Positions 6,985 through 34,149 of a stretch of 35,425 nucleotides of DNA are shown here, piece by piece. The notes under the pieces were generated by a model. The model saw nothing but the letters and a program-made list of their open reading frames with translations. It had not been told where the DNA came from and did no database searches. Within the stretch, counting starts at the first letter, position 1, and each line of letters starts with the position of its first letter. Location: the NCBI GenBank assembly GCA_018260615.1, contig JAGWDQ010000098.1:1-35425 (forward strand). Direction: 5' to 3'. A program made the translations under genes and the position numbers. This DNA comes from Candidatus Altarchaeum sp. (lineage in GTDB: Archaea; Altiarchaeota; Altiarchaeia; Altiarchaeales; Altiarchaeaceae).

Positions 6985-7221
6985 ATGGCAATAAGTATAT
7001 GTAATGAGGGGATGGTTGAAATACCAGTAATGTACCGGAAAAAGTATGGGCTATATGACAATTCAGAAGTTATCATAGAAGATGACATCTTACATAAGGG
7101 AATATTATTGAGGCCTATTATGAAAAATTTAGAGGATTTCACTTCAAAACTTTCCGCAGACGAAGACAAAATTTTATCAAAAAAGACAGAAATAGTAGTT
7201 AAGAATATTATGAATAAATAA
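6985..7221 (+). CDS. AbrB/MazE/SpoVT-family antitoxin (VapB-like)
   Basis: 'GMVEIP..YRKKYGL...SEVII....GILLRPI'. Its stop overlaps the start of the PIN gene. Confidence 0.8.
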   Translation: MAISICNEGMVEIPVMYRKKYGLYDNSEVIIEDDILHKGILLRPIMKNLEDFTSKLSADEDKILSKKTEIVVKNIMNK

Positions 7222-7755
7222 TGGCTGTTCTAATAGACACAACAGGAATCTGGGGATTATACTTCTCCAATTCAAAGTATCACGAATTTATGAAAAATTT
7301 GCATTCAACAACTGAACTTATTGTGCCAAAAATAACTTTTGTTGAATTGATATATTCGGTCTATACTGCAGAAGGTATCAATGAGATGCAGAAACTTGGA
7401 AAGTTCCTTGATGTGTTGAAGACGGCAGAAAATATTACAATTCTCGAGGAAACATTGGATGATGTCACTTCGGCGTTAAATTTCTACGTTCTGCATGAAG
7501 ATATCTTTATTACTGAAAAAGGAAACATGAGTTTATTTGATGCCATATTGGCAAGCATCTGGAAACGAACGGGACTTGTTTTTTATCGTACAGGAAAGTT
7601 CGTTTTATTATCCTCACACGGAGACACCGAGACACAAAGAGGAAATACACTCTGTGACTTTGTGACTTTGTGTGAGCATTTTTTATACAAGAGATCATTC
7701 ACTCGGGAAATTTGGGGACAGGTATAATCTAAAATATAAAATTATTGAAGTTTAA
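7221..7755 (+). pseudogene. vapC: VapC PIN toxin frameshifted by a 100-bp insertion
   Basis: LIDTT..E..SLFDAIL motifs. Removing 7587-7686 gives ...GLVFYTRDHSLGKFGDRYNLKYKIIEV* (144 aa, stop 7753-7755) and restores the PIN TxD motif. Confidence 0.88.
7587..7678. mobile_element. 92-bp TIR-less hairpin element bounded by TTTTTTAT direct repeats
   Basis: TTTTTTAT at 7579-7586 and 7679-7686. Internal hairpin CTCACAC(7613-7619)-GGAGACAC-CGAGACAC...GTGACTTT-GTGACTTT-GTGTGAG(7670-7676). First 23 nt are identical to 33340-33362. Confidence 0.88.
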
Positions 7756-33270: not shown

Positions 33271-33339
33271 AATTTTTCCGTTTTTCCGGAACATCTAAAA
33301 GAAAATATATAAATTTATCAGCAGGTAACAATTTTTTAT

Positions 33340-33586
33340 CGTACAGGAAAGTTCGTTTTATTGTTCTCTAACCTCGCTGTTGCTCGGATATTTTCAAAAA
33401 CTCCGCGTTTTGAAAATCGCACCAAGACACGGAGACACAAAGGGCGATGTTGCTCTGTGACTTTGTGGCTTTTTCAAAACCCAAAGGTTTTGAAAATATC
33501 CGAGCATTTTCAAATCGCAGAGATTTGAAAATATCCGAGCAACAGCGAGGTGAACAGCGAGGTTATTGTGTGAGTATTATTCTGAT
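33340..33586. mobile_element. Second copy of the TIR-less hairpin element carrying nested REP-like insertions
   Basis: TTTTTTAT at 33332-33339 and 33587-33594. Same 23-nt leader and octamer hairpin as the 7.6-kb copy. Inserts at 33370-33419 and 33473-33567. Confidence 0.8.
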
Positions 33587-33612
33587 TTTTTTATCAAAAA
33601 ATATTTTGTTTT

Positions 33613-34149
33613 TTATTCTAATTCGTCTTCCCGATTTATTACCCTCCTCATTTCTTTATCTTTACGTTGTTTTTTTCTCTTATCTAAAAATCCGTATGCG
33701 GTTCCGGATTTTCCGTGATTAATGAGCATCAATATTGCCTCTTTTACATCTTCAACATCCTCATAATCACCAATTATGCCTATGCCCTCCTTTCCCACGC
33801 ACACATAACACTCTGAAATTTTTTCTATGGTATCCAGAACACTCCTGTTTGTTCCTATGATCCTCCCCCTGACGGGTAGAAATTTTTTTTCAGACAGAGG
33901 AATGAATTCATAAGTGTAATCCTTATAATCCTTTGTCAATAATAATGCCTTTTCCGGACTAAATCCCAAACTTATTGCATCAACTACATTTTCTGCAAGC
34001 ATTTCATAATAAGGTGAACCGGAAATAGTTACATCTGTTCCCGTGACTAAAATTTTTGTATGTGTTTTTTCCTCTGTTTTCTTTTTTATTTCTCCGTCTT
34101 TTCCTATCAGCACACCAATTCGGTCTTCTGCTATCTTTGTGTATTGCAT
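33613..34149 (-). CDS. Dim2/PNO1-like KH-domain pre-rRNA processing protein
   Basis: IGVLIGKDGEIK, AISLGFSPEKA and RGRIIG motifs. Confidence 0.88.
   Translation of the reverse strand: MQYTKIAEDRIGVLIGKDGEIKKKTEEKTHTKILVTGTDVTISGSPYYEMLAENVVDAISLGFSPEKALLLTKDYKDYTYEFIPLSEKKFLPVRGRIIGTNRSVLDTIEKISECYVCVGKEGIGIIGDYEDVEDVKEAILMLINHGKSGTAYGFLDKRKKQRKDKEMRRVINREDELE

Follow-up and report, generated by a model that had tools for sequence, protein, structure and literature searches.

Introduction

Prokaryotic MITEs and small mobile repeats are small, non-coding, multi-copy DNA segments that lie mostly in intergenic regions, carry a short direct target repeat, nest in one another, and depend on functions supplied in trans; MITEs, PATEs, and SMRs have reportedly been found in Haloquadratum. 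Members of the IS110 family, such as IS492 and IS621, lack terminal inverted repeats and insert sequence- and orientation-specifically between short identical flanks. The repeat of IS492 is the 5-bp CTTGT, and IS621 uses a bridge RNA. The PATEs of the IS200/IS605 family and the REP/REPIN-RAYT systems are hairpin-based, orientation-specific, and free of terminal inverted repeats; they have a short target beside one end, make no target duplication, and need a Y1 transposase. Rolling-circle insertion, as in Helitrons, duplicates no target bases. In a 2024 census (NAR, PMC11602168), Ca. Altiarchaeum hamiconexum showed the highest cMITE density among archaea, 146 per Mb; the census relies on inverted repeats, and the element family presented here is not described there.

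We analyzed a stretch of archaeal DNA of 35,425 nt (hereafter the window), in which the inserts at 7586-7678 and 33339-33586 are copies of a gene-less mobile DNA element present in about 130 copies in the groundwater archaeon Candidatus Altiarchaeum. The element is like MITEs and small mobile repeats in its size, lack of coding capacity, copy number, mostly intergenic location, nesting, dependence on trans-acting functions, and short target-site duplication. Unlike MITEs, it has neither terminal inverted repeats nor a parent IS with the same ends in the assembly, its target is a non-palindromic heptamer used in one orientation, and its inverted repeat is internal, touching the 3' end only. It shares with the IS110 family the absence of terminal inverted repeats, the sequence- and orientation-specific insertion, and the short identical flanks, but it contains no DEDD gene or bridge-RNA region, and its repeat of 7 nt covaries on both sides in four copies. 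The resemblance to PATEs and REP-RAYT elements extends to the hairpin, the fixed orientation, the missing terminal inverted repeats, and the short target beside one end, whereas the element duplicates its target and a Y1 gene was not found. Like Helitrons and Helentrons, the L-type copies described below start with TC, end with CTGA (CTRR), have their hairpin 11 nt from the 3' end, and are flanked by A and T; in contrast to them, the target bases are duplicated here, and the S-type ends are not CTRR. A literature search found no description of an element with these properties, and no described family was found to match a system with a 7-bp target, a fixed orientation, and no inverted ends, which agrees with the original prediction of a candidate undescribed family.

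Element family and its distribution

Two insertions in the window begin with the same 23 nt, as originally predicted. The word CGTACAGGAAAGTTCGTTTTATT has exactly two matches, at 7587-7609 and 33340-33362, both on the plus strand, where the chance expectation is 0. The assembly to which the window belongs (G000) comprises 2.23 Mb in 148 contigs and is 87% complete. Allowing up to three mismatches, 107 heads of the element were identified in it (57 forward and 50 reverse), many of them at contig ends.

Outside this assembly, the head was rare. Three congeneric genomes contained 0, 3, and 1 copies, which were degenerate, and no copies were retrieved from 37 other genomes of the class; the 3' hairpin arm had the same distribution across genomes as the head. 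A search of viral contigs gave no match, and the sole match among 185,579 species genomes was in the congener Ca. Altarchaeum sp. CG2_30_32_3053 (G003). Metagenome matches were limited to three contigs of a distant Altiarchaeales lineage, each with a solo head only, at 97-100% identity to G000 copies over 31-33 nt; the coding DNA of these contigs is about 72% identical to that of G000. Their solo 24-nt heads lie behind TTTTTTA at L074:5529, L075:5153, and L076:2266, 25 nt 5' of an acylphosphatase-like gene. Within G000, solo heads were observed on contigs C42, C53, C67, C90, and C110, and the solo head of G003 is apparently at the same kind of locus (L079 compared with C110:986).

Structure of the element and its subfamilies

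A complete element consists, from 5' to 3', of a 24-nt head, a linker of 3-9 nt, an imperfect hairpin, and a short tail. The length ranges from 84 to 811 nt (median 143), and this range is wide owing to further small hairpin modules nested within the loop and the arms. The head, TCGTACAGGAAAGTTCGTTTTATT (TCGTAC...TTTTATT), includes a small CGTAC/GTTCG stem-loop. Each hairpin arm comprises three 8-nt units, CACNNAGA facing GTGRCTTT, with a mismatch every 8 nt. The tail is CA in the S-type (as in copy 1) and TATTCTTCTGAT in the L-type (as in copy 2). The element has no ORF of its own. No inverted repeat was detected between the terminal 24 nt of the two ends (shuffle p = 0.34 and 0.89), which upholds the predicted absence of terminal inverted repeats; the sole inverted repeat is the internal hairpin, which abuts the 3' end and starts 26 nt inside the 5' end.

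Copy 1 is a minimal S-type element of 93 nt (T plus 92 nt) at 7586-7678 on the plus strand, and it is missing from three otherwise 93-99% identical contigs. Its 24-nt head occupies 7586-7609 (one of the 107 counted above), with the 5-bp stem-loop at 7587-7602 in the MFE fold, and its imperfect hairpin occupies 7613-7676, as defined by the fold and by pair counts over 32 distinct copies. The element interrupts a vapC gene (7221-7755, plus strand) at codon 122, and the PIN domain was recognized by a Pfam match in the N-terminal part, spanning profile positions 2-105 of 120. The left target repeat TTTTTTA, inside vapC, is at 7579-7585 and the right 7-bp repeat at 7679-7685. The former was assigned from the single TTTTTTAT found here in the contigs L059, L060, and L061, which have the empty site, and from genome-wide flank statistics; the latter was assigned from the sequence, the empty-site comparison, and the flank statistics.

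Copy 2 (33339-33586, plus strand) is an L-type element of 248 nt with the tail GTGTGAGTATTATTCTGAT; the window sequence places TTTTTTA on its left at 33332-33338 and on its right at 33587-33593. Both of its hairpin arms are enlarged by nested small hairpin modules, seen as the inverted-repeat pairs I1, I2, and I5. Within 33369-33565, each module nested in one arm has its perfect reverse complement in the other (28 and 13 nt, 100%), whereas pairing between the older octamer arms is only about 80%. This could reflect either the splitting of a palindromic module or the copying of one arm from its partner.

Ten 92-nt S-type copies in G000 had a mean mutual identity of 94%. The same hairpin was also found behind two further heads, in about 25 extra copies: the B-type (about 22 copies), with the head ...TATAAAGTATAAGTTTTTCATT, and the C-type (about five copies), with the head TGTAATTGTTTAGATAATTAAAATGTAATTC. 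The B-type head is a diverged homologue of the A-type head; its terminal bases differ, yet it also lies directly 3' of TTTTTTA.

The octamer-repeat hairpin of copy 1 folds as predicted (z = -3.0). The accompanying proposal, that G.T wobbles point to single-stranded DNA or RNA, fared less well, as the two strands fold about equally: the folding energies of the plus and minus strands were -12.8 and -12.3 kcal/mol as DNA, and -28.8 and -30.6 kcal/mol as RNA. Over 32 distinct copies, G.T was frequent on the plus strand at stem positions 8, 9, 17, and 18, where A.C was absent; C.T mismatches were about as frequent as G.T at the same variable arm dinucleotides, and thus pairing is not being conserved. 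The arm variants mark subfamilies rather than independent events, the copies being related by descent. The wobbles therefore argue only weakly for a single-stranded or RNA intermediate. No Rfam family matched the element; the best match had an E value of 0.15 and scored far below its gathering threshold.

Target site, flanking repeat, and orientation

The octamer TTTTTTAT is located at 7579-7586, 7679-7686, 33332-33339, and 33587-33594, directly on either side of both copies. It is not rare, with 24 copies in the window compared with 24 expected in DNA of 33% GC, and is thus informative only through its position adjoining the element. Across the genome, it lies directly 5' of 82 of the 107 heads, most of the others having one-mismatch variants, while the reverse complement of the target was never found before any of the 107. 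Insertion is strongly site-specific, as had been proposed, and the octamer does stand at all four borders in the window, but the repeated unit is one base shorter. CGTAC is preceded by T in 103 of 107 copies, whereas the base after the right TTTTTTA varies (A in 43, T in 30, and C in three of the 76 complete copies), and an A follows the heptamer at the empty site on contig C105. Thus, the element begins with this T, and the 7-bp TTTTTTA is what is repeated; an octamer was seen on both sides in the window because the base after the target happened to be T.

Identical heptamers flank 47 of the 76 complete S- and L-type copies, and 16 others differ by one mismatch, some of these being changes in the length of the T-run. 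Variant flanks on one side only are about as numerous as later mutation predicts, given a head divergence of about 1-3%. Four copies are flanked on either side by a matching variant heptamer (TTTTTCA, TTATTTA, and TTTTTAA in the A-type, and TTTTTGA in the B-type). These do not support the original reading as it stood, with an invariant octamer and a fixed recombination core, and partly supply the varied flanking duplications that were said to count against it. Duplicated variant heptamers are what a genuine target-site duplication would leave where one target is strongly preferred, although core recombination that depends on homology could generate them as well. The reconstructed target logo is aaa-TTTTTTA-(a/t), followed by T-rich sequence, with little else conserved, and tandem copies have one TTTTTTA in common.

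The sequence TTTTTTATTTTTTA follows five of the 76 tails compared with 17 of the 3831 TTTTTTA sites of the genome, an excess of about 15-fold. It could be a footprint, of excision or of a tandem copy since lost, or could reflect target choice favoring long T-rich stretches. The tails concerned are on contigs C13, C27, C92, and C101 (twice). One B-type copy (C79:43583-43830) has a 13-nt direct repeat, TTTTCCATTTTTA, instead of 7 nt, and is the only clear length outlier seen.

Empty sites and mobility

With the first 122 residues encoded by the interrupted vapC as the query, intact homologues of 143 aa were retrieved. Three independent metagenomic contigs with the empty site (L059, L060, and L061; from Logan, JGI, and ENA) read ...GGACTTGTTTTTTATACAAGAG... 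at this position, and the window is longer by exactly 100 nt. Deletion of 7587-7686 from the window yields a predicted PIN protein of 144 aa ending in ...FYTRDHSLGKFGDRYNLKYKIIEV with a TRD motif, the last 22 residues of which are identical to those of the natural protein P0002, whereas deletion of only 92 nt breaks the frame. The claim that excision restores vapC is thus borne out by the C-terminus left after removal of 100 nt and by all three contigs. A second empty site, for an L-type copy, was found in a paralogous segment on contig C105. At both places, the heptamer is present once in the empty site and twice in the filled site. The element is mobile, and its insertion in vapC is polymorphic among closely related strains.

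The corresponding comparison for copy 2 was not clean, as the 'empty' site of the congener G001 lacks a further 21 and 22 nt beside the element. These extra stretches, CAGCAGGTAACAA and CAAAAAATATTTTGTTTTTTAT (window 33319-33339 and 33594-33615; compared with L039, G001:C59), have ...TTTAT bounding both sides, and are explained either by a small insertion of older date or by loss from G001. The vapC genes at L060:1501-2019 and L061:81-599 lack the element and carry a different, in-frame insertion of 84 nt after codon 19 (TATAGTAAATTT...GAATTCACTA), which yields the 172-aa P0002. This insertion resembles another small mobile insert, possibly TA-flanked.

Search for a mobilizing enzyme

The mobilizer was predicted to reside outside the window, and none is in the window. 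In the 87%-complete assembly, a profile search for Y1_Tnp (PF01797) gave no match at E <= 0.01, with control genomes positive, and RVT_1 gave no match. Of the genes proposed as neighbors of the element (Y1/RAYT, IS110, or RT), the assembly yielded only an IS110, whose ends are unrelated to those of the element. The candidates encoded in the assembly comprised one IS110-family gene, split over the end of contig C64 and the start of C73, six TnpB elements with perfect inverted ends, six matches to DDE_Tnp_1, two matches to rve, and one tyrosine recombinase gene.

The boundaries of the resident IS110 were defined by alignment with many copies and with LE+RE derivatives in congeners. Its ends are AATTAGACTGC.../...TTATTATACGA, its core is the 4-nt AATT, and its target is the palindromic repeat GGCCATTGGTTT|AATT. 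As the ends, core, and target all differ from those of the element, it was rejected as the mobilizer, and with it the suggested IS110-like route through this gene. A head-like stretch in its right end, TTTATCGGAGTTCGTTT, is inside the IS and is not conserved in the G003 copies. The IS110 loci are C64:7160-7632 and C73:1-1650 in G000 (L058 and L057) and L109 and L111-L130 in G003. Derivatives of about 560 nt that retain LE and RE without the transposase are abundant in Ca. Altarchaeum sp. CG2_30_32_3053 (20-37 matches) and nearly absent from G000.

The six TnpB insertion sequences have the inverted ends GAGTGATTTCGCTTT and AT-rich duplications of 7-8 bp, unrelated to the element, and the DDE_Tnp_1 elements with assembled ends have inverted repeats unrelated to its ends. 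Several DDE_Tnp_1 and rve genes are located on contigs of 1-2 kb with unassembled ends, which leaves them as possible mobilizers, although nothing connects them to the element. At C115:24933-27105 in G000, a 2.2-kb DDE_Tnp_1 IS with the inverted ends CCCATATTTCCGACT is inserted within a head of the element, with a 6-bp duplication, GTACAG. No coding element with the ends of the present family was found in the assembly. The solo heads on C53, C110, C67, C90, and C42 were considered as the start of an autonomous partner and rejected, as they are followed by ordinary genes or an R-M system and no transposase. No multi-copy ORF or gene family was enriched beside the elements.

Mechanism of insertion

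Mobility, target, orientation, repeat length, copy number, and the absence of terminal inverted repeats are established by the results above. We infer the kind of enzyme and a staggered cut, and consider it roughly an even bet that a non-autonomous, orientation- and sequence-specific element is moved in trans by staggered 7-bp cuts and fill-in. An enzyme supplied in trans would cut the two target strands 7 bp apart at TTTTTTA, and gap filling at the staggered cuts would create a true target-site duplication of TTTTTTA; recognition of the ends would be asymmetric, with the head stem-loop perhaps read at one end and the hairpin at the opposite one. Staggered cuts directly account for the variant heptamers on both sides, and they may explain the excess of TTTTTTATTTTTTA beside tails, read as footprints. 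This reading is weakened by the non-palindromic target, the single orientation, and the non-inverted ends, which are atypical for DDE transposases, and by the fact that no DDE_Tnp_1, rve, TnpB, or IS110 element has these ends, where assembled. The 13-nt repeat of one B-type copy, and copy 2 differing from G001 beyond the element, weaken it further. Matching variant flanks are no proof of a staggered cut, because recombination that depends on core identity can yield the same.

Such recombination would be conservative and site-specific, a circle with one TTTTTTA recombining with a chromosomal TTTTTTA through a 7-nt core, so that the flanks would be the two parental cores; we regard this as possible, at somewhat under one chance in three. 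Such a circle would have a junction reading GTGTGAGCA-TTTTTTA-TCGTACAGG. IS492 and other IS110-family elements recombine via short cores, and a tyrosine recombinase can act with a 7-bp overlap. The absence of terminal inverted repeats, the strict orientation and target, the one core common to tandem copies, the clean empty sites, and a flanking repeat that is exactly the specific motif all suit this route, an IS110-family gene and a tyrosine recombinase gene are present in the genome, and a requirement for core identity would allow variant cores on either side, as with the site-affinity mutants of lambda. It is opposed by the different ends (AATTAGACTGC/TTATTATACGA), 4-nt AATT core, and different palindromic target of the resident IS110, by the lack of inverted symmetry around the core of the kind that the binding arms of a tyrosine recombinase would give, by a target hardly conserved beyond the heptamer, and by the enrichment of TTTTTTATTTTTTA beside tails; a core of 7 nt is also unusually long for IS110-type elements. 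A comparably uncertain possibility is an undescribed integration system that reads the folded hairpin and the 24-nt head, inserts at the asymmetric TTTTTTA in a single orientation, and leaves a 7-bp repeat; its enzyme could be an unrecognized one, possibly a host or virus protein common to the Altiarchaeales. We know of no catalogued transposase family that combines these properties.

The duplication of target bases at the empty sites conflicts with HUH transposition, rolling-circle insertion, and integron-type exchange alike. A single-strand HUH mechanism of the IS200/IS605 PATE or REP/RAYT kind, as raised in the original prediction, would make the 5' TTTTTTA the target and the 3' TTTTTTA the right cleavage site of the element, in keeping with the fixed orientation, the short target 5' of one end, the hairpin near the 3' end, the missing terminal inverted repeats, and the stem positions 8, 9, 17, and 18, where G.T occurs on the plus strand without A.C. 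We consider it improbable, because no Y1_Tnp gene was found in the 87%-complete assembly (control genomes positive) and the target duplication is real; in addition, the variant heptamers covary on both sides, both strands fold about equally well, C.T is as common as G.T, and there is one hairpin rather than one per end. A Helitron-like rolling circle was rejected, since empty sites have one T-run and filled sites two. SINE-like retroposition of an antisense transcript ending in ...CCUGUACGA and an A-rich tail, primed on a nicked T-run, appears very unlikely. The target does resemble the TTTT/AA sites of target-primed reverse transcription, a conserved stem-loop would lie at the 3' end of the RNA, the opposite end varies among the S, L, and B forms, and there are 'solo heads', but RVT_1 had no match in the assembly, the solo heads lack a second TTTTTTA, and the copies show neither a graded series of 5' truncations nor a variable A-tail. 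We would give just as little weight to a reading of the hairpin as a folded recombination site of the integron (attC) type, or as a repeated unit acting as a terminator or small RNA, instead of a transposon. Its regular mismatches, the T-runs 3' of it, and the many copies just after stop codons invite that comparison, yet head and hairpin insert as one unit into coding sequence, the RYYYAAC/GTTRRRY core is absent (the arms are CTCACAC.../...GTGTGAG), the copies are dispersed in both orientations rather than arrayed with one ORF each, no Rfam family matches, and a simple terminator scan was empty.

Genomic placement

Of the 3831 TTTTTTA sites in G000, 65% are coding, and despite this, only about six of 84 elements are inside ORFs; the scarcity points to selection. 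Past the tail, the next gene is convergent in 52 of 73 cases, compared with 665:544 for all intergenic sites (p = 0.007), and the TAA stop codon of the convergent gene is often within the heptamer. Many copies are located just after stop codons, and two tRNA genes have an element directly 3', in their T-run. On contig C17 (4217-4673), an antisense element separates tRNA-Pro from tRNA-Thr in a Leu-Pro-Thr tRNA cluster. It is 19 nt upstream of the latter gene, in an orientation that places no T-run on the tRNA strand.

A role as a terminator was rejected, as the simple terminator scan returned no site and the element is co-oriented with the upstream gene in only 39 of 78 cases. A promoter function of the head was unsupported: the tRNA promoters here are GAAAAA-TTTAAA-like and the head is unlike them, and the distance from a solo head to the ATG varies (20, 25, and 45 nt).

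Implications

As nested hairpin repeats, the copies add a new case to an already known class of selfish DNA. The present analysis contributes the exact 7-bp target and its use in one orientation, together with the empty sites, and it excludes the routes through the resident IS110, TnpB, and Y1. The family demonstrates that a MITE-like element can be strictly target- and orientation-specific without inverted ends, which points to an integration enzyme yet to be matched with the element. If what moves the element is a recombinase that recognizes an asymmetric site of 7 nt, it would be of interest as a tool, although this is speculative. The polymorphic insertion is a clean population marker. Copies are found at stop codons, at T-run terminators, and at the 3' ends of tRNAs, and many contig ends mark places where the element breaks the assembly. 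With about 130 copies, it shapes the genome of a widespread subsurface primary producer, in which genes such as vapC are disrupted.
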